Made by a program: the position numbers and the translations under genes
Virus record (IMG/VR): IMGVR_UViG_3300009130_001605
Location: 11,939-75,938 of that record
DNA from: a virus
DNA length: 64,000 nt
Reading direction: 5' to 3' (one strand)
Shown: one piece after another, positions 14,091 to 64,000 of the stretch
How positions within the stretch are numbered: position 1 is the stretch's first letter
How the letters are laid out: each line of letters opens with the position of its first letter
Notes under the pieces: model-generated
Databases searched by the model: none
What the model was told of the DNA's origin: nothing
Seen by the model: only the letters and a program-made list of their open reading frames with translations

Positions 14091-14105
14091 TTTGTTTACT
14101 TTTTG

Positions 14106-15599
14106 TTAAGGTATGTCAACACCATCAATTGATATCCATAATGTGTTGGTTGCAGTATCATCAAATGCTCTTATACCGCCAGTTTGTGTTTTAGAAGGGT
14201 TGTCGGTGTGACTTATTTTTTCATCAAAAACAGTTTGCAAATCCGTTCCACCACTATAAATCACCTCACTCACATCAAGGTTTGTCGTATAAACAGTATC
14301 AGATGTGGAACCTGTTATATTTTGTCCACCAAGAATAACAGATCTTATAGCAGATGATTCTAACTTGTTATTCTGGCCCCCAAGTATTGCTGAATAATCA
14401 GCATTAGTTATAGATCCATTTGAGTGTGCAAAAGCATAAGTTCCGTTTACTAGTGTGTTACCCCCACCTACATGAGACCCTTGTGTAGTTGCAGATGTTA
14501 CACGACCTCCAGCATGAGAAAATGCCCCACTTGCCACTGTTAAATAACCTTGTGCATGAGATCTAGGTGCATTAGCAATTGTTTTATCGCCTTCTGCATG
14601 TGAATAAATGCCACTAGCAGTTGTGTTAAGACCTTCTGCGTGAGATCCTATTCCAGAAGCAGTTGTACCTAATCCTTCTGAGTGAGATCCAACTGCAGTT
14701 GCCGATGTATTGAATCCTTCTGCATGAGAATAATTTCCAGAAGCTAAAGTCTGCCTACCCTCTGCGTGAGAAGCTGTTGTTATTGCAGTTGTGATATGAC
14801 CCTCTGCATGAGAATAATCACCATAAGCAAGTGTATTTCTTCCTTCTGCGTGAGAAGCATCACCAGAAGCACTTGAAAAAAATCCTTCTGCATGAGATCC
14901 ATAAGACCCAGAAGCAGTTGTGCTGTGACCTTCTGCATGTGATGGTCTTCCAAGTGCCTGTGTGCTTTGGCCTTCAGAGTGAGACCAGTCAGCATGTGCC
15001 GTTGTAGATTGCCCTTCAGCGTGACTATATCTACCATAAGCTATTGTACCTGCACCTTCAGAGTGAGCACCTCTGCCTTGTGCCATTGTGACAAACCCTT
15101 CTGCATGAGATCCATAAGACCCAGAAGACAATGTACCTCTACCTTCAGCGTGAGAAGTGTTCGTTGTTGCACTTGTGTTTTGACCTTCAGCGTGAGCATA
15201 AGATCCAGCAAATGTGTTTTGACCTTCAGCGTGAGACCATGGTCCATAAGCTATTGTTTGAAACCCTTCCGCATGTGAGTACCTTCCATTAGCAACAGTC
15301 CCAAAACCCTCAGCGTGAGAATAATTACCACCTGCTGTGTTTCCAGATCCACCAGCAACAAATGAGCTATTCCCACTTGCTATGTTAGATCCTAATACAG
15401 GTTTAATTGAGTTTGTTCCTGATCCAATGATAAACGGTGTAGTGCCTCCACCAGTACTGATTATATCACCAATATCTGTCCCTGCTGAATATATTGTTGT
15501 GGCACTAATGGTGTTAAAGTTTGCAGCTCCACTGAATGCGTCATTTATTGCTTGCCTCCCTGCACCAAAGGTGACTCCCGTAGGTATTAATTCTGACAT
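14106..15599 (-). CDS. tail fibre with YadA-head-like SHAEG repeats
   Basis: About 21 tandem 13-15 aa xxTxAxGxxSHAEG repeats, flanked by IYS[AG]GTD motifs. Confidence 0.8.
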   Translation of the reverse strand: MSELIPTGVTFGAGRQAINDAFSGAANFNTISATTIYSAGTDIGDIISTGGGTTPFIIGSGTNSIKPVLGSNIASGNSSFVAGGSGNTAGGNYSHAEGFGTVANGRYSHAEGFQTIAYGPWSHAEGQNTFAGSYAHAEGQNTSATTNTSHAEGRGTLSSGSYGSHAEGFVTMAQGRGAHSEGAGTIAYGRYSHAEGQSTTAHADWSHSEGQSTQALGRPSHAEGHSTTASGSYGSHAEGFFSSASGDASHAEGRNTLAYGDYSHAEGHITTAITTASHAEGRQTLASGNYSHAEGFNTSATAVGSHSEGLGTTASGIGSHAEGLNTTASGIYSHAEGDKTIANAPRSHAQGYLTVASGAFSHAGGRVTSATTQGSHVGGGNTLVNGTYAFAHSNGSITNADYSAILGGQNNKLESSAIRSVILGGQNITGSTSDTVYTTNLDVSEVIYSGGTDLQTVFDEKISHTDNPSKTQTGGIRAFDDTATNTLWISIDGVDIP

Positions 15600-15635
15600 G
15601 TTTTTATGTTTTAGGTTTAATTATAAATATGGTAT

Positions 15636-17366
15636 TTAATTTTTAATTATATCAAATTCTTTACTAGCCCAAGTGTCAGTTTCATTATCCCAAAGTATCT
15701 CAATATAAAAATCTTCTGAGTAACCTGTTTCTGTTGTTTTGTTTTTGTCCATGTTTATTGTTTGAACATGGGGCTCGTATCCCCTGTAATCAGTTGTCAA
15801 CGTGTACATTCCTGCTGTGAGTCCTGTAAACAAGAATCCGCCTGTATGATCAGAAACTTGCATAATTGAATTACCATCTTGGTAAGTTAATTCTAACGTT
15901 GCACCTGTAACAACACTACCAGTTACAACTCCACTAAGGGAATAATTACCAGGAGTTTCAAGGTTTAATGATTCAGGTGTGAAAGAAGCCTCTATTTCAT
16001 CTACAAAAGGGGAATCTATTTCACCAGACACAAACAACACTTTTGGTGCAACATCTGTTCTACCAGTCATGTTGTCAGAAAATGTTATAATTTTTTGATC
16101 GACATCGAATACATTTCTTATTTTTTTGACATTACCAATTCTGTACATAAAATCCATTCCAGTTTTCAATGGAAAACCTGCTTCTTGTATGCCGTTTTCA
16201 TTTAGGTTTTTTTCTATTTGAAAAATAAATTTTTCACTCGAAGTAAAACCAGTATCTATCAGGTTATATATCACCTCAACAACGGATGAATCTCCATCAC
16301 CTACGTTTGAGTAATAAATTTTTGGTGAGAACGTATTAAGGAAACCTGTCACAAGAGGCTCTTCTATTATTGGCTTGTTGGGTACTGTAAAATATGTAAA
16401 AAAATGACCTTGCACAACTATTCCATTAAATGTTGTAGAAGTTATACTATGCTCTTCTATTGTTGAATTAAAAGGTTCGTATTCTGGTAAGTTTACAGAA
16501 ACTCTAGCAATAGACTCTCCTGAGTGAAAAGGGGATTCATAAAAAGACAATTCTTCAGATGTGGTTGTCGCAGTTACACCTTCTCCAATATCTGGATATT
16601 CTAAATTTTCATTTTCTGTTGAGTTTATGATAAGACTATCAATATTATCTACAGCCATCATTTCAACATCCACGTAGTCACTTGGAGTTTTTTCATAAAA
16701 AGCAAAAGAGGTGGCAACAAAATATTGACATTTATCTTCAAATAACTCTTTTTTATATAATCCAGATGTTGTCCCTGTTGTTTTAATAAATTGACCTGGA
16801 GCATAATCGTAAACTGGCGTTGTCACTCCAGTGGCCGACACTACATCTTCCAAAAAAGGGGTTTCCATCAACTTTTGTATTTCATCAAACGAAACAGTGT
16901 CTAATTTTGAGAAATTTTCAGTTTTACCAGTAGCAGATGTTTCAAGAACTTTTGTGATAGAAGAAATTTGATTACCATCTTCATCGTATAAAGTTTCTTT
17001 TTCTGTAACCAAGTTCTCATGATTAACCCCTTCTGTTTCTTTTTTGTTAAAAAGAGGGCTATAACCTTTATAAGATTCAAAATCTAATTTATAAGTTTTA
17101 TGAACAATTTCTGTTTTACCACTCATTGAATGAGTGTTTCCAGTAAACTCATATCTAATAAATGGAACATTAAGATTTGTAAACAACATATGAGGATCTT
17201 GTGAGTAATAGTTCACGGAACCGCCCAAAGTTGTAAATTTAGGTACATCAAAAGTTATGTCTCTTAACTTATCCTCATTTATATCAACATTTTTGTTGGA
17301 ATAAAAACTTCTTGCAACAGAGTTATTATCTCCAGTCTTTTTTCTGTATTCTTTATTAATTATCAT
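15636..17366 (-). CDS. virion protein with C-terminal carboxypeptidase-regulatory-like domain
   Basis: LSG.V....GATLEL......SD.TGGFLF.GL.AG.YTL at the C-terminus. Confidence 0.55.
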   Translation of the reverse strand: MIINKEYRKKTGDNNSVARSFYSNKNVDINEDKLRDITFDVPKFTTLGGSVNYYSQDPHMLFTNLNVPFIRYEFTGNTHSMSGKTEIVHKTYKLDFESYKGYSPLFNKKETEGVNHENLVTEKETLYDEDGNQISSITKVLETSATGKTENFSKLDTVSFDEIQKLMETPFLEDVVSATGVTTPVYDYAPGQFIKTTGTTSGLYKKELFEDKCQYFVATSFAFYEKTPSDYVDVEMMAVDNIDSLIINSTENENLEYPDIGEGVTATTTSEELSFYESPFHSGESIARVSVNLPEYEPFNSTIEEHSITSTTFNGIVVQGHFFTYFTVPNKPIIEEPLVTGFLNTFSPKIYYSNVGDGDSSVVEVIYNLIDTGFTSSEKFIFQIEKNLNENGIQEAGFPLKTGMDFMYRIGNVKKIRNVFDVDQKIITFSDNMTGRTDVAPKVLFVSGEIDSPFVDEIEASFTPESLNLETPGNYSLSGVVTGSVVTGATLELTYQDGNSIMQVSDHTGGFLFTGLTAGMYTLTTDYRGYEPHVQTINMDKNKTTETGYSEDFYIEILWDNETDTWASKEFDIIKN

Positions 17367-17369
17367 GAT

Positions 17370-20348
17370 TTACACTTCTAATAATTGAGCTGTTTTTGTT
17401 GCAACATCGTAAACAATTTTACCAACATCATCTCCAGTTGAATAATTATTGTTAGTTATGGTTGTTTGTATAATTTTCTTGTCTACCAATATTCCAGTTG
17501 GGTTAATGAAGTTATGTCCATTTCTAACAATTTCACCACCTAAATATGTTTCCATCTCAATGGATATGTTACCAGAATTTATCGTTTGGAATAATGCTCT
17601 CAACCTGATTTCAAAAGATACTTCAAGAGGGAAGTCGTTTTCTAACTGTAAAAAGTTTATTTTAACTGATTCAGTTCCTGTTACCTCTGAGTTATCTGTA
17701 CCCCATGTTAAGAATGGCTCTCCTGTTGACAGCGGACCAACAGTTGTAGGTCCTTCACTCCAACCTACTTCATCGCCATCTATACTGACATTTCCAGTGT
17801 TAACAATTGCAGTTTTTGTATCAAGGTCATTACCTCCTTCTGAAGTCCACTTATACCTAATTACAGCAAAATCGAATGGATCAAAATCGAATTGATCACT
17901 CGAAGTGTTTGGGTAAATCTCAGAGGTTAAACTTATCGGATTTAACACAGAATCAAGTTTTGTTGGCATATTACTAATTACTTGTATAGGGTTTAGTTGC
18001 ATGCCAACTCTAGGTGTCAAATACCCCTTAACTTCAATAATATTTAAATCTGCCTTGTTGTTATCGTTTGTATCTGCTGTTGGTATAACTGGGTACAATT
18101 GTGGATCTAATGGCGGTATATAATCAGCCTGGAATTCAGAACCATCATTTATACCTTCTTTATAGACAAACTTTTGCCTATTAAACAATGTGTTTCTGTA
18201 TTCCGTACCTGTACCTTGGAAAATTGTTGTAGCAGGAATGAGTTGCAAGAAATAATCTTGAAACTGCACCTCCAATAGTTCAATAAAAAACTCTAGACTT
18301 CTAAAGGTTAATCTGTTTGACCTTGGGCTATCGCCATAATAATATGTTAAATATAATTTTTTAAGATTTTGATACCAAAAGCTTGTGTGTTCTTGGTCTA
18401 CCGTTTTTCTAGTTCTTGGATCTGTTGAGTTTGCATAGACATGTTCTGCAAATTCATTAAATGTCATTCCAGAAATAACTCCATAGTCGATTACGTCACA
18501 AAATTCGTAAATATGTTCAAACGGAACTGTTAATGCACTAAATGAGAATGTTGTAGAAGTTGTACCCCACACCCAACAAGTGCCTGTTGATTGAAGCCAG
18601 TGCATTACATCACACTCAATTGCTGCAGCTGGGCTTATACTAACGTCCAATTCTTTTGTATTCAGAATGTGCTCCGTCCCAAAGTAATTTGTGTCACCAG
18701 TTTGAACTTTAATGTTATCAGCTCTCTTAATTGGATCAAATTCTGGTCTCCATTGGTTTATATATGCTTGACCGTCACCTCTTCCTGGTCCACCTTCTTG
18801 AAATATATAAGAACTTGCATCGTAATTTATATATCCGTTTTCATTTATTTTTTTAGGACCACCTTCAATTACAGAATCACTTATCTGAATAAAATCCGTT
18901 TGCCCTTCTGATGGGGCAAAATCACCAGTAAGACCTTCTGTAGAATCTGAAACAACTTTTTTAATATCATAAACAAATTCGTTTAGGTTGATAAGGCATT
19001 CAGGAGCACCAATTAGTTTAAATACAAACTGTAATGCATCTCTTGTACCTTTTTTCTTAAACAGCCAAATAATATTGATTAATATTCTTTTCCATATCTC
19101 AACATTTACTTCAGCTAGTGTTGTTTTGTCCCCTTCTACATCTCCAACCAAATATTCAAACAAATCGGTTTCATTAAAAGATGATGACAATTCCCAACCT
19201 AAAAGATTACTTAATTTGTGTAAAAACTTGTTAGGCAAACTTTCTTCCTCTGAGTAGTTTACGGTATGTGCGAATGCAATAGAGTCAATAAACTGTTTGA
19301 TGTCATCAAACTGCTTAGAGTAAGTCTCTACCAAACTCCTATAATCACCTTCGTCACTATCTTGTTCCAAAAAGTTCTCAGGAACCATTGTCCTAAGCAT
19401 TATACCCGTTTTACTATCATCAACTAATTGAGCAGCATTTAATATGTCTTCTAGGTAAAGTGTGAAATCACCACCTTGATTATCAGGGTTGAATCCATCA
19501 ATTGATCTAGGCCATGGGAATTGCAAGAGGTTTTCTGTGTCTGGTTCTTCTGCACTTGGTATTAAAAACTCCCCTTCCAATACCAATTGTTTTTGAAGCC
19601 TTGTCATTCTGCTTAAAAACAAGTTATGCCTTATCTTTGTAGGTCTTACATAAATAGCATTTGCATAACTACTCGCTGTTACAGAGCTGTCAAACAATAG
19701 TCCTCCAATTCTGAAATTCATGTAAGAAGTTCCAGCGGAAGTTGCAAAAGGTGTGAAACTATAATCTATTATTTCATGTATAGTTTCGTTTCCGAATAAC
19801 TGAATAGCAAATTCACTTGTATCATTTACAAGAGTTGGGTTTGTTGACGTACCTGAGTTTACAACAACTTCGCCCTGATTTGTTGCAGATGTGTAAGGAA
19901 TGGAAAACGAAGATTCAAATGTTGAACCAACTTTTTCAGTTGTGTAGTTTACTATTGTACTACCAGTCCCATTGTCATAAGATAAAACAGCATAAGGAAA
20001 GTTTTCATTTACATCGTTTATTCCTTGTGCAACAGATGTGTAAAAAGAACTAAAGTAAGCGTAACTTAATGGGTCTGTTTTTTTAAAATTTAACTCCCTG
20101 TTATCAACAGAAAAAGAAAGCTCTGGCTCAAAAGTGCTAACATTTAAACTCTCTAATGTACCATAACTGTCGAATGACAGATGTCTACTGTCAGCCGATA
20201 AACTATCGGAATCCGTATTTCTTTGGACTCTAAATGAACCGAATGTAAACAAAGATTCTGACTTGCTTGTAGATATTCTTGTGTCTTCACCAGGTTTTTG
20301 AAAAACCGATAAGGTTTGACCGCTGTCTATTTTGACTAAATCTGCCAT
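17370..20348 (-). CDS. baseplate wedge protein gp7 / P2 gpI-like with C-terminal accessory domain
   Basis: LP..FL..L..LLGW...IW.RIL....LFKKKGTRDAL motif typical of the gpI/gp7 family. Confidence 0.7.
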   Translation of the reverse strand: MADLVKIDSGQTLSVFQKPGEDTRISTSKSESLFTFGSFRVQRNTDSDSLSADSRHLSFDSYGTLESLNVSTFEPELSFSVDNRELNFKKTDPLSYAYFSSFYTSVAQGINDVNENFPYAVLSYDNGTGSTIVNYTTEKVGSTFESSFSIPYTSATNQGEVVVNSGTSTNPTLVNDTSEFAIQLFGNETIHEIIDYSFTPFATSAGTSYMNFRIGGLLFDSSVTASSYANAIYVRPTKIRHNLFLSRMTRLQKQLVLEGEFLIPSAEEPDTENLLQFPWPRSIDGFNPDNQGGDFTLYLEDILNAAQLVDDSKTGIMLRTMVPENFLEQDSDEGDYRSLVETYSKQFDDIKQFIDSIAFAHTVNYSEEESLPNKFLHKLSNLLGWELSSSFNETDLFEYLVGDVEGDKTTLAEVNVEIWKRILINIIWLFKKKGTRDALQFVFKLIGAPECLINLNEFVYDIKKVVSDSTEGLTGDFAPSEGQTDFIQISDSVIEGGPKKINENGYINYDASSYIFQEGGPGRGDGQAYINQWRPEFDPIKRADNIKVQTGDTNYFGTEHILNTKELDVSISPAAAIECDVMHWLQSTGTCWVWGTTSTTFSFSALTVPFEHIYEFCDVIDYGVISGMTFNEFAEHVYANSTDPRTRKTVDQEHTSFWYQNLKKLYLTYYYGDSPRSNRLTFRSLEFFIELLEVQFQDYFLQLIPATTIFQGTGTEYRNTLFNRQKFVYKEGINDGSEFQADYIPPLDPQLYPVIPTADTNDNNKADLNIIEVKGYLTPRVGMQLNPIQVISNMPTKLDSVLNPISLTSEIYPNTSSDQFDFDPFDFAVIRYKWTSEGGNDLDTKTAIVNTGNVSIDGDEVGWSEGPTTVGPLSTGEPFLTWGTDNSEVTGTESVKINFLQLENDFPLEVSFEIRLRALFQTINSGNISIEMETYLGGEIVRNGHNFINPTGILVDKKIIQTTITNNNYSTGDDVGKIVYDVATKTAQLLEV

Positions 20349-45605: not shown

Positions 45606-47603
45606 ATGAGCAATATCTTAGATATAAAAGATTCAATTGGTGCATATACTTTTTATGCAACAAATACAAACAAAGAACAATACTTTTGTAAATGTGGAAA
45701 CCATTTCGAAGTAGATGCTCCTTCAGACGAACTTTCAGATGTAGAAAACCTGTTTAATGATGGTGACGATGATGATGGTATTATGGGAGCACTTAACAGT
45801 GCCAAAATATCTTTAAGGGATAATATTAAATGCCCTCATTGTAATGTCGATTACAAAATCCCTGTAAACCAAAAGAGATTAAGAGAAATTGGTAAATATT
45901 TCTTATCAGGATACAATGTTAACGAAGATAACGGTAGACTGACCTTAAATAAGGTTAAAGTAAAACCTTTGCTTGCACCAGAAGAATCAGAGGAACCTTT
46001 GGAATTTGAAGAAATTGTTAGGCACCTTTCTTATGAGATTGAGACAGGGAAATTGTTTTTCAAAGATTATAAGTCTGAAGAAATAGAGTTTGATCTAGAT
46101 CAAACTCTATCAGTAGTTAGCAAGTTTTTTGAAAATGACACACCACTTGTTGTCAATCTATTTGATTTACATAACTACATAATGAAATTATCAAATTATG
46201 TATCCGATTCAGAAAATATCGACACAGTAAAAGGTTTACTTGAGGAAGCAAGGTCAAATATGAACAAGAGTGCTGATGACACTTTTGAGAAAGTCTTATC
46301 TATCTTGTTGTCAATCATCAAATATTCAAACTTGTCAACAATTGCAATGACTAAAAGTCCTATTTTCCTATACGAAATGCTTAGAGATTGTAATCCTCCG
46401 AAAGCAGAGGTGTTGGAGAAAGAGGGTGTCACTTCACCAATCAAGATTTTTAACTTCTTGGCAAAAACTTACATCAACAGAATAAACGAAGAAGTTAAAG
46501 AAGAAAAGATTGTTGAAAAGGAATTTACATTCTCTAGTAATATCGTCTTGGAAGACCACGAGGATCATTCAAAGGTATCAAAAGTTGGTGATGATTTTGA
46601 GGAAGGAACTGAAGATACAATGTCTGTATCAGAAGGAGAAACAAGAGAGTTGAAAATAAACTTAAAATCCATTCAGGATTATGAGTCTAAGGTTTCTAAA
46701 ACCGCCCAAGGTAATTTTGAGGTTTTTCAAATCGGAGGTGACGGACAGATTTCAAAATTCATATACAAGAAACTTAAAGCGTTTCACGACTATAAACAAC
46801 TGGTTAAGTATATGAAACATTTCGAGTATAAGAACTTGGTTGAACTTATGACGAAATATGACTATGATCTTATCGTGAACATGATAGATGTGATCTATTA
46901 CCGATTAGACATAGACATGGATGAGGTGAAAAGGCTTATTCCGTTATTTATAGACCATTGTCAGGTTCAAACCAAAGATATGAAGATAAAAACTAATACG
47001 TTTGATCCAAATGAAGAGCTTACGTTAGATTACACTTACATCAATAGTTTTAATTTTGAGTTTTACGATGACTGTAAGATGATGATTAAAACTTTGGAAT
47101 TTGATCCAAGAAAGGATTTGTACAAAATCAAAACAAATGCCGTTCTTAAAGCCTTCCATGATGAAGTGGTGAAATACTATGGGGCAATTAAATTAGAAGA
47201 AGAAGGCGGTTATAAAGGTTATTTCAATAACTTTAAATTCCTTGAGGATAAAAACAACTACGATGGGTTATTGAGATTCGAAATAATTGATACTCCTAAA
47301 GCTGTTGTTGCAGAAGGTAGGGAACTACACCATAGTGTGAGTTCTTACGCAGCTAGATTGATGGACGGGGATTATGTATTACTTAGAGTCTATGATGACA
47401 CTGAGGACGCTCCAGAAAAGGATTTAGATAGATTCACAATGGGGCTTCATTACAACAAGAATAACGGTCTTGAGTTTGATCAATTAAAAGGTGTGGCAAA
47501 CAAGCCAGCAAGTGATCGGGTTAAGAAAATGGCTATTGAATGGATGAAATCCAAAGAAGTGAATTATAACGAAAAAAGACCAGACATCCGTATTAGACGA
47601 TAA
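45606..47603 (+). CDS. PcfJ-domain protein with N-terminal Zn ribbon
   Basis: CKCG...CPHC; C-terminal EG.ELHHSV.SY...Q.KG..N. Confidence 0.7.
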   Translation: MSNILDIKDSIGAYTFYATNTNKEQYFCKCGNHFEVDAPSDELSDVENLFNDGDDDDGIMGALNSAKISLRDNIKCPHCNVDYKIPVNQKRLREIGKYFLSGYNVNEDNGRLTLNKVKVKPLLAPEESEEPLEFEEIVRHLSYEIETGKLFFKDYKSEEIEFDLDQTLSVVSKFFENDTPLVVNLFDLHNYIMKLSNYVSDSENIDTVKGLLEEARSNMNKSADDTFEKVLSILLSIIKYSNLSTIAMTKSPIFLYEMLRDCNPPKAEVLEKEGVTSPIKIFNFLAKTYINRINEEVKEEKIVEKEFTFSSNIVLEDHEDHSKVSKVGDDFEEGTEDTMSVSEGETRELKINLKSIQDYESKVSKTAQGNFEVFQIGGDGQISKFIYKKLKAFHDYKQLVKYMKHFEYKNLVELMTKYDYDLIVNMIDVIYYRLDIDMDEVKRLIPLFIDHCQVQTKDMKIKTNTFDPNEELTLDYTYINSFNFEFYDDCKMMIKTLEFDPRKDLYKIKTNAVLKAFHDEVVKYYGAIKLEEEGGYKGYFNNFKFLEDKNNYDGLLRFEIIDTPKAVVAEGRELHHSVSSYAARLMDGDYVLLRVYDDTEDAPEKDLDRFTMGLHYNKNNGLEFDQLKGVANKPASDRVKKMAIEWMKSKEVNYNEKRPDIRIRR

Positions 47604-50257: not shown

Positions 50258-50773
50258 ATGATATTCGATTACAATTTCTCAGAAATAGAAGACAACCTTA
50301 ACTTACCTGAACTAGGAGAGTTTGAAGGATTTCAAGATGCAGATGACGATTTACGTCCTGTTGCAAACTTTATTAAAAGCAAAACGTTTCACAACGAGTA
50401 CATAGAGCCAAATAGAATTAAGTTTTTCTATACGAACAAACCAAAGAAAGACGGTGGTAGGTATGTAACAGGAACTTTAATGGTTCGTTCGGAAATTGAA
50501 AGACTTGTTGATGATAGATACGACTTCATTGCCATTATCTATTACCCAGTGTTCAAAATGCTTGAAGACGAGGATAAAATCATCCAATTAGACAAAGTTC
50601 TTTGTGGTATTGACTTAGGAACCCTTGAGAAGCCTGTAGTAAAAAAGCAGCAACCAGATTCGAAAGAATTTATTGGAAACTTGAGCTTTTATGGTAGAGA
50701 CAAAGTTCACGACAGTTCTGAGACAGTTCACTTAGCAACAGAATCAATCGTCCAATCAGAAAAAGAAGGGTAA
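50258..50773 (+). CDS. phage metallopeptidase-like protein lacking HExxH
   Basis: RI.F...K.KK.GG..V.G....YDFI.II....F..L....K...LD(KVLCG)...D..EF.....YG. Confidence 0.55.
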   Translation: MIFDYNFSEIEDNLNLPELGEFEGFQDADDDLRPVANFIKSKTFHNEYIEPNRIKFFYTNKPKKDGGRYVTGTLMVRSEIERLVDDRYDFIAIIYYPVFKMLEDEDKIIQLDKVLCGIDLGTLEKPVVKKQQPDSKEFIGNLSFYGRDKVHDSSETVHLATESIVQSEKEG

Positions 50774-54597: not shown

Positions 54598-55022
54598 CAG
54601 TTTTGTGTGCAGCATTTCCTGGGACAGATAAATCTCACTATTTTAGAAATTCCGAGTTAGATGTACTCGACAGTGACAGTAGTACATTCGATAAGAGTGA
54701 GTTTCCTGCCAATTATATCGAGCATATCAAAAATAACATGGGAAAGGTTGATGTAATTCTTATTAGCAGTCATGAGGAAGTGCGTGACGCTCTTGTAGAG
54801 AGTGAATTGCCATTTACGTTGGTTTACCCAGACAAAGACCTTAAGGGCGATTATATCGCTAGATATAAAGAAAGAGGTAGTCCAGAAAAATTCATAGAAC
54901 TTATATCTAAAAACTGGTTAGGTGAATTAAAGAACCAAGAAGGCTGTGAACATAAGGTTTTAAAACAAGGGGAATATATCTCTGACGTACTTCCACTAAA
55001 AAAAGAAGATGAGTCTAAATAA
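54585..55022 (+). CDS. P-loop kinase-like protein with degenerate Walker A
   Basis: AFPGTDKS (family form is AFPG.GKS), D.DSS.F, FP.NYI.HI, ISSH.EVR and Y..RG motifs. Confidence 0.6.
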   Translation: MDRVTVLCAAFPGTDKSHYFRNSELDVLDSDSSTFDKSEFPANYIEHIKNNMGKVDVILISSHEEVRDALVESELPFTLVYPDKDLKGDYIARYKERGSPEKFIELISKNWLGELKNQEGCEHKVLKQGEYISDVLPLKKEDESK

Positions 55023-55707
55023 AAGAGAGTTGTTCATAAGGGATTCCATTGGATTAGAAGAAAACCTTGTTGTTCGTGTTTCTGAAATCTCTAAGCAACT
55101 TAACACAAATAAATACAGTGTTTGGATTGCCAAGGAGGCAAAGAAGGACAACTCAATATTAGATAACTATAATTTAATTTCAGACATTGTAGATTGGGCT
55201 AAGTCTACCAGTGCAGACATCATGAAGTTTGATATATATTCTGCAAATGATGCTCAAAAAGAGTGGCATGAAATTAAAGCGGATTTCCCTGTTATAAAAC
55301 AAAAAATGAAATCAAAAGAAATTGATGAAGATCGAGTTGTGTTTGTAACAAGCCAAGGTGATCATTTTTTCTACATTCTAAATTCTGATGACTTAAAATA
55401 CGAATCAGACCATATGCTTCATTGTATAGGTTGGAAAAACAGTGGGTATAATAACAAGATTGATGCTGGAGATTCGGTTATTCTTTCCCTTAGAAATGAA
55501 GACAATATTCCTTTGTTGACAATTGAAATTGACGAATCTAGTGGCAGAAGCATTCAAGTTAGAGGTAAGAAGAATCAAGACTTAACTGATTTGTCAAAGA
55601 AAATTAAAAGATCATTATCGGAGTTTGTTTTGTTTGCAGGAGACTTTAAAGAAACGGAGAGTGCAAAGATTTTAGACATCATTAATAGCAACTTGAATTA
55701 TTTTTAA
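55009..55707 (+). CDS. PcfJ-domain protein
   Basis: DL..E...M.HCIG...ILSLR.....LTIE......Q.RGK.N. Confidence 0.7.
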   Translation: MSLNKRELFIRDSIGLEENLVVRVSEISKQLNTNKYSVWIAKEAKKDNSILDNYNLISDIVDWAKSTSADIMKFDIYSANDAQKEWHEIKADFPVIKQKMKSKEIDEDRVVFVTSQGDHFFYILNSDDLKYESDHMLHCIGWKNSGYNNKIDAGDSVILSLRNEDNIPLLTIEIDESSGRSIQVRGKKNQDLTDLSKKIKRSLSEFVLFAGDFKETESAKILDIINSNLNYF

Positions 55708-55779: not shown

Positions 55780-57063
55780 ATGGGATTAGGATTTCGAATA
55801 ATACAACCACCACAAACACCTAATGAGGGTAGGGCTGACATAAATTACAACTTTGCTTTATTATCGGGTGTAACTAGTATTAATTTAACTGGACTAACAA
55901 GTGGAGCGAGTACTTTTGATATAACATCTGGTACTTCTGAGAACGGAACACTTACGCTTATTACTTCTGGAGGTAGTACTATTAATATTGCCATCCCAAC
56001 TGTTTCTAACAGAGTTTTAAATGGTTTTGAAACAGCTTATGCTATCGATAACAATTTTGAACTAACCGTTTCAGCTGGTACATACAATATTAACGACACA
56101 ACTTATACGGCACCAGAAACTGTTTTAAACCTTGTTTCTAATGATGCAGAACATGATAGACTAGATGTTATTGTAGGAGATGAGCTTTCAGCTGTAACTA
56201 TAATATCTGGTACTGCTGCTCAAAACCCAGTTGCACCTGTTGTATCAGAAGATAAAGTTTTAATTTCATACATAAACATACCTGGTCAGACATCACAACA
56301 AATTTTTAATGGTAATAGAACTGTAAAGCGTTCAGGTTTACCAAACATAAATGCTGGAGGTGAAACAGTGATGGATTGGCTTGAAAATTATTTCTTCCCA
56401 TTTATACCTTCCACTCTTAGCATAAACTCTCATTCTTTGAAAGAAATTGGGACCACTTATAGTCCAAACATTGATTTCATACTTACACTTAATGACGAGA
56501 CAACTGTAACAGGCAGGAGAGTTATAGATGTAACAGATTCAAACACTGTTGTTTATAATCCAGCAACTAATAATGAAACTTTTAATGCAGTAAATGTGAC
56601 AACAGATAATACTTGGAAAAACGAGGCTGATGTTGATAACAACGGAAGCCCGACAACAATATCAAGTAGTAACAGTACAGTTAGTTTTATTTACCCATGG
56701 TTTTATGGAACAGTTGCATCAGGAGGAGCTCCGTCAGGGAGCAATAGGCCAGGTTCAGATCAAGCATTAATTAACTCTGGAACAAAGTCTGTATCAAACA
56801 GTAATGGGACATTGACAGTGTCTTACAATAGTACGTCAGATGACTACATATGGTTTGCAATACCTTCTACAAGTACATCGAAAACAAAATGGTATGTTGA
56901 TGCATTAAACAATGGTTCTATAGGTGGTGCTGTAAATTTATTTCCAGACTTTGACTCGGTTAGTATAGACTCACCTACCGTTTTATGGAACGGTGTGTCT
57001 TATAAGATATATGTAAGTAACTATCAATCAAGCGTGTCTTCTATTCAATTAAAAAATTCTTAA
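55780..57063 (+). CDS. tail-fibre chain protein 1 (C-terminal YP.FYG domain)
   Basis: C-terminal domain of about 125 aa is highly similar to that of 58607; late motif at 55747. Confidence 0.7.
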   Translation: MGLGFRIIQPPQTPNEGRADINYNFALLSGVTSINLTGLTSGASTFDITSGTSENGTLTLITSGGSTINIAIPTVSNRVLNGFETAYAIDNNFELTVSAGTYNINDTTYTAPETVLNLVSNDAEHDRLDVIVGDELSAVTIISGTAAQNPVAPVVSEDKVLISYINIPGQTSQQIFNGNRTVKRSGLPNINAGGETVMDWLENYFFPFIPSTLSINSHSLKEIGTTYSPNIDFILTLNDETTVTGRRVIDVTDSNTVVYNPATNNETFNAVNVTTDNTWKNEADVDNNGSPTTISSSNSTVSFIYPWFYGTVASGGAPSGSNRPGSDQALINSGTKSVSNSNGTLTVSYNSTSDDYIWFAIPSTSTSKTKWYVDALNNGSIGGAVNLFPDFDSVSIDSPTVLWNGVSYKIYVSNYQSSVSSIQLKNS

Positions 57064-57072
57064 AAAGAAATT

Positions 57073-58581
57073 ATGTCAATTATATTAAATGATAACTTAA
57101 AAATTAACGCTGGAAAGCCAGTGGATTCCAAATACCTTAATGGAACTGTTGATTATGTTTCTGTGGCAGAGGTAAATGGTTTAATACCAATATCTGAAAG
57201 ACACCCTGGCCTTACAGTTAGGGTCAATTTAATTGAATATTGGTATGAGTCATCTGTAGATGACATAGGATTAGTTGCAAAAGGTACAGGTTCATTAGCA
57301 AGTGTATTTGTTCAAGACGAAACAACTTCCTCTATAAAGCCAGTATCTGGCGGTACGCCTGTTTCAACAGGGTCTTATTCTATGGTTGTTGGTGGTAAAA
57401 GCAATGAAGCTAGTGGGGATTATTCATTAGCCTCAGGTTATTACACAACAGCAACAACAATTGCATCACATGCTGAGGGTTATGAAACATTATCATCTGG
57501 GTTTAAAGCTTCTCATGCTGAAGGTAATGGGACTTTAGCATCAGGTAATTTTGGATCACATTCAGAAGGAAGTGGGACCGTTGCTTCTGGTGATTATTCA
57601 CATGCAGAAGGTGGAGGGACTACAGCTAGTAGCAGAGCAGCTCATGCTGAAGGTTTTGGTACATTAGCAAGCGGAAATCAATCTCACGCAGAAGGGTTGG
57701 GTACAATGGCAACTGATCAAAGCACTCACGCTGAAGGTAATCAAACCTCTGCTGTTACATTAAATTCACATTCTGAAGGTAATGCAACCCTAGCTTTTGG
57801 TGAAGACTCACATTCAGAAGGTTCTTTTACCAGGGCATTAGGAAACTCTTCACATGCTGAAGGTCAACAAACATCGGCAACAACTTTAGCGTCTCACGCT
57901 GAAGGTAGGTCAACATTGGCCTCTGGTAATTATGCACACGCTGAAGGGACTTTCTCTCAAGCTATTGGAGATTCTTCACATGCTGAAGGTAAAGAAACTA
58001 TTTCATTTGGAATATATTCTCATGCAGGTGGATTAAGTTCAACTGTATCTGGAGAAACTTCTTTCATTCACTCAAATAATTCAACAATTGAAGTTGGGTC
58101 AAATAACTCATCTATACTTGGCGGTTCAAACAACAGGTTATTAGCTCTTGCAACAGGGTCAACAATTCTTGGTGGAACTGGAATTACAGGTACAACACAA
58201 GATACAGTTTATGGTATTAATTTCGATGCTTCTGGTAGCATTTACTCTGGCGGAACAAATCTTTCAGACATATTTATTGCATCAGGGTCTCCAAACAATT
58301 TAAACAATGTCACGTTCAAATCAGCAAGCTCAACTTTATTAGAGAGTGAGGCAGGTCTGGTTATAGTTACAGGAAATAATGTAATATTAACACTACCAAA
58401 TTCACCAGCAACTGGTACAGAATTTAAAATTAAAGATGGATCTGGAAACGGTTCTACAGATACAATAATTATTAGTGGAAACACTCATGGTGTTGATGGG
58501 TTTGTTAGCACAACAATAGAAGAGGATTATGGGTCTTTGACTTTTATATTCGATGGAGTAAATGATTACATGATATTATAA
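57073..58581 (+). CDS. tail fibre with about 14 SHAEG repeats and a gp9/gp10-like C-terminal domain
   Basis: N-terminal MSI.LNDN.KINAGKP; SHAEG repeats; C-terminal LP.SP..G.EFKIKD.SG. Confidence 0.8.
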   Translation: MSIILNDNLKINAGKPVDSKYLNGTVDYVSVAEVNGLIPISERHPGLTVRVNLIEYWYESSVDDIGLVAKGTGSLASVFVQDETTSSIKPVSGGTPVSTGSYSMVVGGKSNEASGDYSLASGYYTTATTIASHAEGYETLSSGFKASHAEGNGTLASGNFGSHSEGSGTVASGDYSHAEGGGTTASSRAAHAEGFGTLASGNQSHAEGLGTMATDQSTHAEGNQTSAVTLNSHSEGNATLAFGEDSHSEGSFTRALGNSSHAEGQQTSATTLASHAEGRSTLASGNYAHAEGTFSQAIGDSSHAEGKETISFGIYSHAGGLSSTVSGETSFIHSNNSTIEVGSNNSSILGGSNNRLLALATGSTILGGTGITGTTQDTVYGINFDASGSIYSGGTNLSDIFIASGSPNNLNNVTFKSASSTLLESEAGLVIVTGNNVILTLPNSPATGTEFKIKDGSGNGSTDTIIISGNTHGVDGFVSTTIEEDYGSLTFIFDGVNDYMIL

Positions 58582-58606
58582 TTAAAGAGTAATAAAATAA
58601 ACAAAA

Positions 58607-59515
58607 ATGGCATATAAAGACGGAAAAAAATTAAACAGTTTATCAGCTAACACTATCTACTCAGGAACAACTGATATTTCAGATTTGATTAGCAGCAGTG
58701 CAGCAGGTGTATATGAAGGTGAGGCACCAGCCAACATTACAGTTGGTGGTATAGACTCAGGCACTGATTTAACAGGTCTACCATGGCAAGATGTAATCGA
58801 GAAACTAACAGTTAAGTATTTAGTGCCAAAATTTAGCTCTTTTTCAATAACAGGGCAACAAACTTTATTAGAAGTTGGTGAAACTTTAAATGGAAATAAA
58901 ACATTTACTTGGTCAACAACAAATGTTGCTAACATAACTACTAACTCAATTGATATTGATGATATTACTGGAGCAAACACTTTAATAAGTGGTACATCCA
59001 ATGATGGCAGTGAGGTTTTAGATATTGGAACGGTAGATAATAGTACACCAATATCACAACAATATAGAATAACAGGTACCAATACCAAAGGTGATGATTT
59101 TATTAGAAATTATACAATAACTTCTCTCTATCCATATTTTTATGGAATAGTCTCTTCTGGTGGGGCAGCAGCAGGTGTAAATAGACCAACGGCTAATCAG
59201 GCATTAATAGATTCTGGAAGTAAAGTCGTAGCTAGTTCTACGGGAACTATTTCTGTTAATTTCAACAGTACATCAGATGATTATCTTTGGTTTGCAATAC
59301 CAACGACTAGTGCATCTAAAAATGTTTGGTATGTATCAGCACTTAACAATGGTAGTATAGGTGGATCTACTTCAGTAAGTGGTAATTTATTTCCAGACTT
59401 TGATTCAGTGAACATAGACTCACCTACTGTACTTTGGAATGGGATCACTTATAAAATATACATAAGTAATTTTCAATCTGCCCTAAGCGAAACAATGCAA
59501 TTAAGAAACTCATAA
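58607..59515 (+). CDS. tail-fibre chain protein 3 (YP.FYG domain)
   Basis: Paralog of the 55780 C-terminus; N-terminal M.YK..KKLN motif. Confidence 0.7.
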   Translation: MAYKDGKKLNSLSANTIYSGTTDISDLISSSAAGVYEGEAPANITVGGIDSGTDLTGLPWQDVIEKLTVKYLVPKFSSFSITGQQTLLEVGETLNGNKTFTWSTTNVANITTNSIDIDDITGANTLISGTSNDGSEVLDIGTVDNSTPISQQYRITGTNTKGDDFIRNYTITSLYPYFYGIVSSGGAAAGVNRPTANQALIDSGSKVVASSTGTISVNFNSTSDDYLWFAIPTTSASKNVWYVSALNNGSIGGSTSVSGNLFPDFDSVNIDSPTVLWNGITYKIYISNFQSALSETMQLRNS

Positions 59516-59527
59516 AATACATATAAA

Positions 59528-62500
59528 ATGTCAATTAATTTAAATGATAATATAAAAATAAATGCAGGAAAACCTTCTGAGTCTAAATACTTAAATGGTG
59601 TTGTTAATTACACCTCTGTATCAGAAGCAAATTCTCTTGTACCAAAAGCGGAAAGGCATTTAGGACTTACAGTATTATTAGATGGCGTGGAATACTGGTG
59701 GAAATCAGGAGTGGAAGACGTAGATCTGATTACTAAAACAAGTGAAAGCGATGGGAGTTTTTCTGATTTTAAAGTAATTACAACAGCAGACACTTTGGGT
59801 AGCCTTGGTTATATCTCATTAGATGACGGAAGTCCATTTGCATATGTAGTTGGTGTTAGTGATTATGGCTCACCTTCTGTTTATTATGGTCTTTCGGCAG
59901 GTACTTTCAACCTTTATGATAACGGTGGTAATACTGGTATTGGTACATTTGTTTTATCTGGATTAAGAGAAGGTTCCTCAAATATAAGTGGTAGCTCTTT
60001 AAGTGGTGGTTTTGGTCACACTGCCATTGGTCAAAACGCACTATCAAACATTGAAGGTGGTATTTATGATACTGCTGTTGGTTTTAATGCAATGGGTAAC
60101 AGCTCAAGAACTAATTTTCAAGGGGGAAACGTTGCGGTTGGTAAAGATGCTGGTTCTAACATGGGAGATGTAAGTAATAATGTTGCAATAGGTATTTCAA
60201 CGTTGCAAAATATTTCAGCTGGTACTCAAGACGGAGACTTCAATGTTGCATTAGGGTGGAGAGCCCTTAGGGAAACAAAAAATGGAGAACAAAATTTAGC
60301 AATAGGTTCTTCTGCAATGAGGTATTCTAATAACGTAGGAGGTAATATTGCCATTGGTACATTAGCATTACTTAATTATTCTGGATCAGGAATAGATAAT
60401 GTGTTTGATGGTAATGTGGCCGTTGGTCAATCGGCTGGTGAAAATTTGTCTGGTTTTGATAACATCTTGTTTGGGCAGCAATCAGGCTTTAATGCAGGTG
60501 GTGATCACAACATTTTTTTAGGAAGAAACTCAGGTAGAGATATTACATCACCAGACTCAACTATTTTAATTGGACCTTACACAGATTCGTCTAAATCTGA
60601 CATACATAACGCTGTAGGTATTGGTTCTGGTGTCACAGTTGCTCAAGATGACACTGTTGTTTTTAGGCCAAATGCAAGCATTGGTCTTGGTACAAATACG
60701 CCAGAGGCACAATTACATGTAACAGGAAGCATCCTTTCAAATCAGTCAATTTCAGCAGAGACAATTTTCTCTGGAGATACTGATGTTAGTGAATTATTTG
60801 CACTTAAAAACAGTTTCTCTCAATTTGAGATTGTTAGTGCAAGTACACAAGTTGGGGATCCAGGTCACATTTTGTTAGATGGTGTTCCAACTGCATATTT
60901 CATGGAAGGTACTTTCACAGAGGCATCAACTTATTTTGGTTATTCAGCAGGTTCTTTTGGTGATTCAAATTTTGGAGGAAACGTAGGGTTTGGTACTGAA
61001 GCTTTAGGAAACTCCAGTAGTTCAAATTCATATGCCAATACAGCTATAGGATCTTTCTCTATGGGAGATTATGACGGAACAAACTATCATAACACAGCCA
61101 TAGGATTTGAGTCTCTTAAGTCTATAAGTGCTGGGACTCATGATGCAGGGTATAATACCGCATTAGGTTCTAGAACATTCAGAGATTCAACAAATGCATT
61201 TGCTAGTTTAGCAATAGGTTACGAAGCCCTTAGGGACTCTGTTGAATCTTCTGGTAACATTGCCATAGGTTATCATGCTCTTAGGGGTGCTACTTTTACA
61301 CCTTATGGACCAGGATCTGTGCAAGCAGTGTTTGCAATTGGGTTAAACTCAGGTAGGGATTCTTTTGGTTCTAAAAACTTATTCATAGGATCTGAGACAG
61401 GTAGGGATAACTCAGGTGTTGACAATGTATTAATAGGTCATCAAGCAGGACACGCAATTGAAGCTGGCCTTGGTGAATTTCTAACTGGTTCTAGCATGGT
61501 AACAATGGTTGGTTCTGAATCATATTCTGACAAATCAGACGTTACAAACGCTGTTGCACTTGGATATAGATCAAGATTGGCACAAGACAACACATTTATT
61601 GTTGCAAACGGATTAGACGTTGGTATTGGAACTAGTACTCCAGAGGCAATGTTGCATGTAACTGGAAACGTATTGTCAGATCAGTCAATTTCAGCAGAGA
61701 CAATTTTCTCTGGAGATACTGATGTTAGTGACTTATTCTTATCAAGTAATGCAATCTTACCTTCTGCTGAATATCTTATTGTATCTTATGTAGATACAAT
61801 CGATGGCTCTGATGCTAATGGTTCGGTTGGAACTAGCAAAGCATTTCAAACTATTATATCTGCAACTTCACAATCAAACGAATACATAACCAATAGCGGT
61901 ATTGAAGGTGCTAAGGCATTAGTTGTTGTTAGGAGAGGTACATATTATGAGAACTCCATAAACAGAGAACATGTTGATATGTATTTTGACAGAGGTTCAG
62001 TTGTTATATCATCAGTTGCTGGAAGACCTGTATTTTGTGATTTCCTTAATGATAGTGGTGGTAATAAACATCCATTAAACATAACTGTAACTGGTAAAGG
62101 TAGCTTCTACCACACCAACTTCAGACCTTTTAATGACTCACAAGCCATAGCAACAAATAATGCCAATACGAAAGAATTTAATTTCGAGGCTTATGAAATC
62201 GATGGTTTCCAGAATTTCGGAAATAATCAGCAAACATTCAACTATTCAGATTTAAGAATAAGGTTCTTTATTGATTTTCATAACAATAAGAATATCAACA
62301 TGGTTAATTGCACGTTTTTAATGGGACTATCAACAGGCCATTATCTTGGTGATAATGTATCAGTTTCTTGTGATAAATGTGAAATGATATTGCCGTCAGA
62401 TGGTTATGATTCATTACTTGACATACAAGACTATTCAGGAGGAACTGTTGACACCATAACAATGGATGGGTTGTTTGCTCCTGTGAACACTTCTGCAATG

Positions 62501-63244
62501 ACTAGAATTGATATTAGGGATTATGTGCCTGCTGCTATTATAACAGAGCCTCAAATTGCAGCTATACATCATGTTACTGACAACACAGTTGGTGGTAGTT
62601 TCTACAACTTTAGATTGTCGATTACTAATTCAGTTGCTAGAATAAGAAAAGAAAGATGTATGGGTGTGAACGTTACTCAAAACATAGATGTTGATAATTC
62701 TGTTTCAGAGAGAGGCTATGTAATAATAAAAGATCTTCACATTGAAGATGAAACTGTTGGAAGAGACACAACGGGTATAGTTACAGGTAAGAAAAGTACA
62801 GTTACAGACAACCTTCAGTTAGGGTTGAATTATTATTTCACAAACACAAGCGTTGAAACAGATGTTGTACAAGCTGTTGGTCCTGAGGGGACTGACACTG
62901 GTATATCATACATTGATTTAACTAAAGCATATAGACCACTTACAGTAGGTGGTGAAGGAACTGAATTAACGAAACTTTATGGTGGTACTTCTTATACAGC
63001 TTCTACGCCTGGAGTGGTATCAATTAGTGCAGGAACAGCATTCGCTTTAAGTTTACCTAGCACACCTAGTGTAGGTGATAAATTTACCATTAAGGATTCT
63101 TCTGGAAGTGCAAGTACATACAATATAACAATAAATGTAGATGGTGGTTCTTATTTAATTGATGGTTCTTCGTCAGAAACTTTAACAGAAAACTACGAAT
63201 CATCAACTTATATATTTGATGGAGATATTTATATAAACATATAA
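59528..63244 (+). CDS. long tail fibre/adhesin: duplicated N.AIG beta-roll modules, a possible beta-helix region, and a gp9/gp10-like C-terminus
   Basis: N-terminus shared with 57073; NxA[IVL]G repeats; two IG.GT.TPEA.LHVTG; C-terminus shared with 57073. Confidence 0.8.
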   Translation: MSINLNDNIKINAGKPSESKYLNGVVNYTSVSEANSLVPKAERHLGLTVLLDGVEYWWKSGVEDVDLITKTSESDGSFSDFKVITTADTLGSLGYISLDDGSPFAYVVGVSDYGSPSVYYGLSAGTFNLYDNGGNTGIGTFVLSGLREGSSNISGSSLSGGFGHTAIGQNALSNIEGGIYDTAVGFNAMGNSSRTNFQGGNVAVGKDAGSNMGDVSNNVAIGISTLQNISAGTQDGDFNVALGWRALRETKNGEQNLAIGSSAMRYSNNVGGNIAIGTLALLNYSGSGIDNVFDGNVAVGQSAGENLSGFDNILFGQQSGFNAGGDHNIFLGRNSGRDITSPDSTILIGPYTDSSKSDIHNAVGIGSGVTVAQDDTVVFRPNASIGLGTNTPEAQLHVTGSILSNQSISAETIFSGDTDVSELFALKNSFSQFEIVSASTQVGDPGHILLDGVPTAYFMEGTFTEASTYFGYSAGSFGDSNFGGNVGFGTEALGNSSSSNSYANTAIGSFSMGDYDGTNYHNTAIGFESLKSISAGTHDAGYNTALGSRTFRDSTNAFASLAIGYEALRDSVESSGNIAIGYHALRGATFTPYGPGSVQAVFAIGLNSGRDSFGSKNLFIGSETGRDNSGVDNVLIGHQAGHAIEAGLGEFLTGSSMVTMVGSESYSDKSDVTNAVALGYRSRLAQDNTFIVANGLDVGIGTSTPEAMLHVTGNVLSDQSISAETIFSGDTDVSDLFLSSNAILPSAEYLIVSYVDTIDGSDANGSVGTSKAFQTIISATSQSNEYITNSGIEGAKALVVVRRGTYYENSINREHVDMYFDRGSVVISSVAGRPVFCDFLNDSGGNKHPLNITVTGKGSFYHTNFRPFNDSQAIATNNANTKEFNFEAYEIDGFQNFGNNQQTFNYSDLRIRFFIDFHNNKNINMVNCTFLMGLSTGHYLGDNVSVSCDKCEMILPSDGYDSLLDIQDYSGGTVDTITMDGLFAPVNTSAMTRIDIRDYVPAAIITEPQIAAIHHVTDNTVGGSFYNFRLSITNSVARIRKERCMGVNVTQNIDVDNSVSERGYVIIKDLHIEDETVGRDTTGIVTGKKSTVTDNLQLGLNYYFTNTSVETDVVQAVGPEGTDTGISYIDLTKAYRPLTVGGEGTELTKLYGGTSYTASTPGVVSISAGTAFALSLPSTPSVGDKFTIKDSSGSASTYNITINVDGGSYLIDGSSSETLTENYESSTYIFDGDIYINI
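60741..61731 (+). repeat. perfect 52-bp direct repeat (60741-60792 and 61680-61731)
   Basis: ATCAGTCAATTTCAGCAGAGACAATTTTCTCTGGAGATACTGATGTTAGTGA occurs twice, 939 bp apart and in frame. Confidence 0.9.
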
Positions 63245-63254
63245 CAAAAACAAA

Positions 63255-64000
63255 ATGGGATATAAACATTCAAAAAAATTAAATAAATTTTCAGGTTCCA
63301 CCCTTTATTCAGGATCAACAGACATAAGTGATTTATTTCTTCCAATAGGAACTCCTATTGGAGGAGATTCCCCATTCACAGATGGAACAGGGACAAGTGC
63401 AATAAAACCTGTGGACGGATATAATACATCTTCTGGGTATTACTCAATGGTTGCTGGTGGTAAAGGAAACACTGCATCAAGTTATCATTCACACGCAGAA
63501 GGGTATAACACAACTGCTTCTGGTAACTATGGATCTCACTCAGAAGGTTATTATACAACTGCAAATGGCGATTCATCTCATGCTGAAGGGTATTACACAA
63601 CTGCATCTGGACTCAACTCTCATGCTGAAGGGTCTAATACATTAGCATCTGGAATTGATTCTCATGCTGAAGGGACTCTTACAGTAGCAAGTGGAAATAG
63701 GTCTCATGCTGAAGGTAGAGAAACAGAAGCAAGTGGTAGATACTCACATGCAGAAGGAAAAAACACTAGGTCTTATGGTTGGTATTCTCACTCAGAGGGA
63801 AAAGATACATTGGCAGCAGGACAATTTTCTCATGCAGAAGGCGATAAAACAATAGCAGATGGAGTAGCTTCTCATGCAGGGGGTGAAAATTCTATATCTT
63901 CTGGACGAACTTCTTTCATTCACTCCGATTCTTCTGTTGTGGAAGATTATGGTTCATCTATAATTGGTGGATTTAGTAACAGACTTACAGCTGGTGCAAC
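63255..64000 (+). CDS. tail fibre with about 10 SHAEG repeats (runs off the window)
   Basis: Translated by hand: MGYKHSKKLNKFSGSTLYSGSTDISDLF...SHAEG repeats; no stop before the window end. Confidence 0.8.
   Translation, partial: MGYKHSKKLNKFSGSTLYSGSTDISDLFLPIGTPIGGDSPFTDGTGTSAIKPVDGYNTSSGYYSMVAGGKGNTASSYHSHAEGYNTTASGNYGSHSEGYYTTANGDSSHAEGYYTTASGLNSHAEGSNTLASGIDSHAEGTLTVASGNRSHAEGRETEASGRYSHAEGKNTRSYGWYSHSEGKDTLAAGQFSHAEGDKTIADGVASHAGGENSISSGRTSFIHSDSSVVEDYGSSIIGGFSNRLTAGA

Follow-up and report, generated by a model that had tools for sequence, protein, structure and literature searches.

Candidate C-terminal socket and N-terminal plug joints in a five-gene tail fiber chain of an uncultured jumbo phage

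The joining of several proteins into one phage fiber is already known. In T4, the long tail fiber is formed by gp34, gp35, gp36, and gp37, which are encoded by consecutive genes and joined end to end, with gp34 proximal and gp37 distal (PMC5537660). In branched tailspike complexes the docking modules are all N-terminal, with XD2 and XD3, and not XD1, experimentally implicated (PMC8825819), and the jumbo (giant) phage RaK2 has nine fiber proteins (gp526–534) (PMC10253068). Here we describe five consecutive tail fiber open reading frames (ORFs) on the plus strand (positions 55780–63998) of a 64-kb window, the whole stretch of DNA analyzed, which comprises the last 64 kb of the 75.9-kb linear IMG/VR record IMGVR_UViG_3300009130_001605. 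CheckV places completeness at ~23%, and the window is thus a fragment of an uncultured jumbo phage. We designate the C-terminal domains of these proteins sockA and sockB and their N-terminal modules plugA (70 amino acids, aa) and plugB. Judging from sequence comparison, it is somewhat probable that the C-terminal socket of each protein binds the N-terminal plug of the next, forming the joints of a multi-protein fiber.

The five ORFs are separated by gaps of 9, 25, 12, and 10 nt. Gene 1 (427 aa; 55780–57063) has an N-terminus of its own (…IN.NF..L type), with neither plug at its start, and contains an FN3-like domain (~56389–56670) and a terminal sockA (56671–57060). Gene 2 (502 aa; 57073–58581) begins with plugA (57073–57282), continues with YadA-head-like SHAEG repeats (~57370–58077) and a linker motif, SIYSGGTNLSDIF (58237–58278), and ends in sockB (58345–58578). 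Gene 3 (302 aa; 58607–59515) consists of plugB (58607–58690), an FN3-like domain (58814–59128), and sockA (59129–59512). In gene 4 (1238 aa; 59528–63244), plugA (59528–59737) and sockB (63002–63241) flank a middle made up of two ~313-aa modules of NxAIG-type repeats (~59813–61690) and an unassigned region (~61745–62977). Gene 5 (at least 248 aa; 63255–63998) is cut by the contig end and starts with plugB (63255–63338), followed by SHAEG repeats.

The initial annotation had described a five-gene chain with shared end and start domains, and pairwise BLASTP bore out all five ORFs and every similarity that it listed. Genes 1 and 3 match at 47% identity across the 234 aa of their C-terminal parts (E 2e-59), residues 1–70 of genes 2 and 4 are 61% identical (E 5e-26), their last ~74 aa are 45% identical (E 2e-10), and residues 1–28 of genes 3 and 5 are 64% identical (E 4e-9). 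Genes 2 and 5, in turn, are 55% identical in their SHAEG middles (E 7e-51). As sequence matches, these domain similarities are far beyond chance. The YadA head repeat (PF05658) is matched by the SHAEG repeats of gene 2, gene 5, and a fiber gene on the minus strand (14106–15599); the score for gene 5 (28.1 bits) exceeds the Pfam gathering cut-off of 25 bits, and that for gene 2 (14.9 bits) falls under it. This likeness to YadA is limited to the exchangeable cargo and does not extend to the joints. No cultured relatives were found by megablast or tblastn among 50,697 GenBank phage records, the sole match being a weak one to the FN3-like region of gene 3 in an uncultured 642-kb phage.

Like those of the T4 long fiber, the genes are consecutive, with serial joining proposed here from sequence, and sockB resembles the N-terminal region of gp34-type proteins, both by its profile and through phrog_972. 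Unlike in T4, the joints are repeated, interchangeable pairs of several types, present one to three times per genome and combined with swapped middles, and there is no homology to gp35, gp36, gp37, or the rest of gp34. As in CBA120 (TSP1–4), G7C (gp63.1 and gp66), and RaK2, receptor-binding proteins are encoded by adjacent genes and carry conserved docking modules, which are putative here, and sockB shares both sequence and fold with XD1 of CBA120 TSP4. In contrast to these three systems, however, the candidate sockets lie at extreme C-termini, implying head-to-tail joining rather than N-terminal branching; sockB is thus at the opposite protein end to the TSP4 XD1, which is N-terminal, between the anchor domain and XD2/XD3. 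A further difference is that sockA and plugA belong to no Pfam or PHROGs family, and the same is true of plugB. Neither Pfam nor PHROGs gave an XD2/XD3-type match in the five proteins, and the matches of sockB in the PDB cover XD1 only. By these comparisons the fiber set appears to belong to neither the T4 nor the branched tailspike set, with sockB alone related to a known domain.

The likeness of sockB to XD1 comes from both structure and sequence profiles. An AlphaFold2 (AF2) model of sockB (alignment A2; predicted local distance difference test, pLDDT, 89.5) matched CBA120 TSP4 XD1 (7REJ_B) in Foldseek with a TM-score of 0.75 (E 1.6e-6), and also the baseplate of Klebsiella phage KP1 (9F4B), T4 gp9 (1QEX), and T4 gp10 (5IV5). 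The sockB profile (A2) aligned with residues 100–176 of 7RFV/7REJ/7RFO (E 2.2e-6, or 0.005 with a single sequence), XD1 being residues 80–178 of TSP4 (PMC8825819). Matches were also obtained to residues 97–161 of T4-type gp34 (E 0.008) and, over a short stretch (profile positions 119–181), to phrog_972 (E 2.5e-4). Thus, sockB is predicted to have the beta-sandwich fold of TSP4 XD1 and the T4 gp9 middle domain, a fold that in known phages, gp10 included, is located beside fiber joints.

The pairing of sockA with plugA was followed across ~80 related IMG/VR loci, using hidden Markov models (HMMs) derived from the seeds. With gene 3 as the query, six viral loci were recovered, in each of which a sockA gene is immediately followed by a plugA gene (6/6). 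A second search, seeded by plugA (alignment A1) and blind to sockA, returned 75 loci, many of them on contigs of 200–365 kb. In these HMM matches plugA opens the protein in 121 of 123 cases, and sockA closes it in 113 of 113. The gene that comes next after each of the 78 unique sockA genes carries plugA (78/78), and all 86 unique plugA genes are preceded by sockA (77+3) or by a divergent form, sockC (6); for the three plugA genes that seemed to be exceptions, the upstream sockA lies in an ORF that is truncated at the locus edge or that the caller missed. Unsupervised BLAST clustering of C-ends and N-starts gave the A pair in 76/76 and the sockC pair in 7/7 cases, an "LPFG" variant of plugA being the only partner seen after sockC. 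Five CheckV-complete genomes (325–365 kb) contain 1, 1, 3, 3, and 2 copies of sockA and identical numbers of plugA, all as adjacent pairs, with no orphan of either. Moreover, a joint profile found 5215 relatives among 1.84 billion representative proteins, and in the best 150 of these every sockA lies at the C-terminus and every plugA at the N-terminus. The adjacency that the initial annotation saw in the window therefore holds in related genomes, including the five complete ones; it is conserved family-wide and is not the product of a single tandem duplication without counterpart elsewhere. In one locus, sockA-bearing frames with no callable full ORF in the scan occur before plugA genes (L055:1–700 and L055:1200–2000); these may be frameshifted or short genes, or an artifact of the start-codon rule.

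The A-joints are tight, with a median gap of 12 nt versus 66 nt at B-joints, and the window's own two, at 9 and 12 nt, are in frame, as they would be if the gene boundaries were artifactual and a single protein were made by stop-codon read-through or split by sequencing error. Over 84 joints, however, the gap modulo 3 is distributed 23/26/35, with no in-frame preference, further stop codons occur in many linkers, and no sockA-plugA fusion is found among the best 150 of the 5215 relatives. We have rejected this explanation on these grounds, its probability being negligible.

Adjacency counts alone prove nothing, since conserved non-fiber gene pairs in the same loci, which serve as a clustering control, are equally perfect (12/12 and 21/22). 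The fiber joints are set apart from this synteny control by body exchange, co-divergence, retained paralogs, and short gaps. The middles had been described as swapped cargo, and across the family the joints do persist while the bodies on both sides are exchanged: the N-terminal companion of sockA in its own protein is plugB in 51 cases, plugA in 13, and something else in 18, and the plugA gene that follows ends in sockB (35), sockA (13), or another domain (27). In Mantel tests on identity matrices from 79 joints, sockA correlates with the plugA of the next gene at r=0.68, compared with 0.30 between sockA and the 100 aa that precede it in the same protein and 0.37 between plugA and the 85 aa that come after it, these two lower values being partly due to non-homologous middles. 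The joints of a single genome are spread over distinct clades shared with other genomes, which makes them old, retained paralogs. The joint, rather than the gene, is the conserved, co-diverging unit.

An account without docking has to be set against this. Joints could be copied as blocks with breakpoints within gene middles, for example at the linker motif, while the N-terminal modules anchor the fibers independently to the baseplate or a common adaptor and the C-terminal modules act as folding nuclei or receptor-binding tips. The perfectly associated non-fiber pairs agree with such an origin by synteny and duplication, which we regard as possible, if rather unlikely. It gives no reason for exact 1:1 numbers despite freely exchanged bodies, nor for a joint that co-diverges more tightly than neighboring parts of one polypeptide, and sockA is more conserved than the middles, although it is usually the receptor-binding tip of a fiber that varies most. 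From co-inheritance, covariation, 1:1 numbers, and terminal positions, we infer that sockA would bind plugA.

The B pair appears looser than the A pair. sockB forms the extreme C-terminus in 65 of its 68 matches, including genes 2 and 4. By HMM, the next gene has a plugB-type start in 29 of 43 cases, and clustering shows this order for 30 of 32 close neighbors; the remaining sockB genes precede non-fiber genes after gaps of at least ~90 nt, sometimes with a plugB gene further downstream. Read from the other side, only 27 of 79 plugB-type starts have sockB upstream, and plugB heads most clusters without it, the usual first gene being a ~370–390-aa plugB-FN3-sockA protein behind unrelated genes. 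No clear remote XD1-like baseplate protein that might receive this first plugB was found in the five complete genomes, which have only weak extra matches near the clusters. The sockB-plugB pairing of the initial annotation thus stands for close neighbors, but plugB, half of which is the internal linker motif discussed below, does not appear to be a dedicated sockB partner; its frequent occurrence without sockB speaks for the non-docking account and against a plug-and-socket role for this pair.

Clustering also yielded three more types of C-end and N-start, each found exclusively with its own partner (7/7, 3/3, and 3/3). Type D (L013, L016, L046, L050, L063, L064) combines the C-end "...YKVYKSN..GAFT...AFS" with the N-start "MAIKRPDIY.HNNP", type E (L058, L065, L085) the C-end "...ETIQG..Y.RY.YNG...IRL.F" with "M[GS]R..GTF.Y.AN", and type F (L010, L021, L022) the C-end "...SFSIVIS" with "MAGEFYTG". 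Synteny and duplication leave the absence of any mixing over ~130 joints of at least five types unexplained. It is conceivable, although we offer this only tentatively, that at least five mutually exclusive docking pairs (A, the sockC/LPFG variant, B, D, E, and F) form an alphabet and act as an assembly code that orders interchangeable receptor-binding modules. If so, there would be a correspondence between gene order, joint type, and position in the fiber, and recombination could bring in new specificities while leaving assembly intact.

The arrangement of the pairs is also more varied than the two alternating pairs first described. The A/B/A/B form of the window recurs in five other loci (L038, L043, L051, L062, and L063), but a typical gene chain reads [plugB-sockA][plugA-sockA][plugA-sockA][plugA-sockB][plugB-...], and such A-A-A-B chains, like the additional pair types, of which there are at least three, are common. 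Strict A/B alternation is one arrangement of several.

For the A-joint, we modeled with AF2 a construct that continues from gene 3 into gene 4 across the stop codon (alignment A3; pLDDT 85.7, predicted TM-score 0.70). At their C-termini, genes 1 and 3 share a conserved unit of two domains, an FN3-like sandwich and the terminal domain. In the model, the FN3-like domain occupies residues 70–174 (VIA Z ~8 to FN3/immunoglobulin (Ig) domains), and sockA (residues 175–300; pLDDT >90) is predicted as a beta-sandwich packed on it. A fold search with the joint model returned only generic FN3/Ig matches, to residues 70–174, and a sequence search of the PDB with gene 3 gave no match. plugA is modeled as a small globule (gene 4 residues 24–73; pLDDT ~90) preceded by an arm (residues 1–23) that is unstructured in the monomer model (pLDDT ~50–56) and yet is the most conserved stretch of the joint, which fits a segment that folds on a partner.

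Folding nuclei and S74-type chaperone domains typically take the form of conserved C-termini on otherwise variable fibers. The C-terminal domains could accordingly be assembly aids, either a cleaved intramolecular chaperone or a folding platform for the next product, and tight gene spacing would suit coupled folding. This seems improbable: none of the five proteins has a Pfam match at E <= 0.1 to Peptidase_S74 or any chaperone family, sockB carries the XD1 fold of structural proteins, and sockA is modeled at very high confidence as a beta-sandwich packed on the FN3-like domain.

The second half of plugB, T[IL][YF]SG.TD[IV]S[DE]L[FI], is not confined to N-termini. Copies of this linker motif occur inside gene 2 (at aa ~389) and gene 4 (at aa ~412 and ~725), and on both sides of the SHAEG block in the minus-strand fiber gene at 14106–15599. 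In gene 4, a perfect 52-bp direct repeat (60741–60792 and 61680–61731) that encodes QSISAETIFSGDTDVS, again the linker motif, closes each of the two ~313-aa modules. The modules themselves are only 35% identical as protein, so the perfect repeat between them points to recent conversion or crossover at the motif. In view of the internal copies and the 52-bp repeat, the motif is better described as a linker between modules in general, at which recombination or conversion takes place, than as a dedicated N-terminal plug. Such intragenic exchange is what copying of joints as blocks would require of the gene middles. Recent homogenization of the window's joints at the DNA level was also considered and is unsupported, as the joint repeats are only 72–80% identical as DNA.

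Several further points weigh against docking or limit what it would imply. The two A-joints of the window fall, together with joints of L008 and L014, into one well-supported four-member clade with unresolved internal order, and a duplication of [FN3-sockA | plugA-middle-sockB | plugB] within the lineage possibly lies behind the A/B/A/B order. One such event would suffice for the window, as the synteny account holds; it would explain the local order and not the family-wide pairing rule. With two copies of each pair type per virion, gene order gives assembly order only if the paralogous pairs are orthogonal. The joint model is a single chain from which docking is not readable, and the low pLDDT of N-terminal arms may stem only from the missing homotrimer. 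In BFVD, the FN3+sockA unit resembles proteins that are uncharacterized or labeled "tail fiber," from Tenacibaculum phage PTm5 as well as from crAss-like and other uncultured phages. Units of this kind thus end the fibers of unrelated phages, where they could be a receptor-binding tip, in agreement with the non-docking account. The XD1 fold occurs in glycan-binding domains as well, which again suits that account, and in TSP4 XD1 is said to be unable to bind a trimeric partner, with linkers leaving both of its faces (PMC8825819). In sockB, the domain being the chain end, the distal face would be free.

Our favored reading, that of joints between successive proteins, can be summarized as follows. 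The five genes would encode subunits of one multi-protein tail fiber assembly, in which each product contributes its C-terminal domain, and its successor an N-terminal segment, to a cognate joint module. sockA would pair with plugA and the XD1-like sockB with a plugB-type start, and trimer would follow trimer in head-to-tail order, the arrangement of the T4 long tail fiber. The receptor-facing middles (YadA-like rolls and tailspike-like repeat modules) are exchanged by intragenic recombination, partly at the linker motif, and the very short A-joint gaps would favor coupled expression. Should the joints prove physical, gene order together with the terminal domains would by itself be enough to predict how host-recognition fibers of several proteins are built in a large group of uncultured jumbo phages, covering thousands of proteins without a Pfam or PHROG family. 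The docking repertoire would then extend past N-terminal gp10-like XD2/XD3 to C-terminal sockets, among them an XD1-like domain earlier thought partnerless, and the joints would provide ready-made, possibly orthogonal connectors for studying the gain and loss of receptor-binding modules.

Elsewhere in the window, a second structural cluster on the minus strand (12624–20348) encodes proteins of 992 aa, 576 aa, 497 aa (the SHAEG fiber at 14106–15599), and 488 aa, and none of its proteins contains sockA, plugA, or sockB. PcfJ-like proteins (PF14284) are encoded at 45606–47603 and at 55009–55707, the latter directly upstream of the fiber chain, and a putative phage metallopeptidase (PF18894) at 50258–50773.

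In the related loci, insertions are found after sockB genes (L040, L048, L051, L059, L062; L016, L041, L063, L069; L055, L068, L087), at times between the sockB gene and the next plugB gene. The inserted genes include some that we take, from their motif (…VYIYTL.NP.N…YVGYT), to be GIY-YIG homing endonuclease-like, others encoding "GGHGK" proteins, and "FMAGFPRAGSTLL" proteins, which are presumably sulfotransferase-like; none of the three kinds was seen inside an A-joint in the loci examined. Finally, a 392-aa protein from the representative library (P0127) has a sockB-like (XD1-like) domain at residues 25–102 and a C-terminal sockA, and therefore the XD1-like domain can also lie near the N-terminus in this family.

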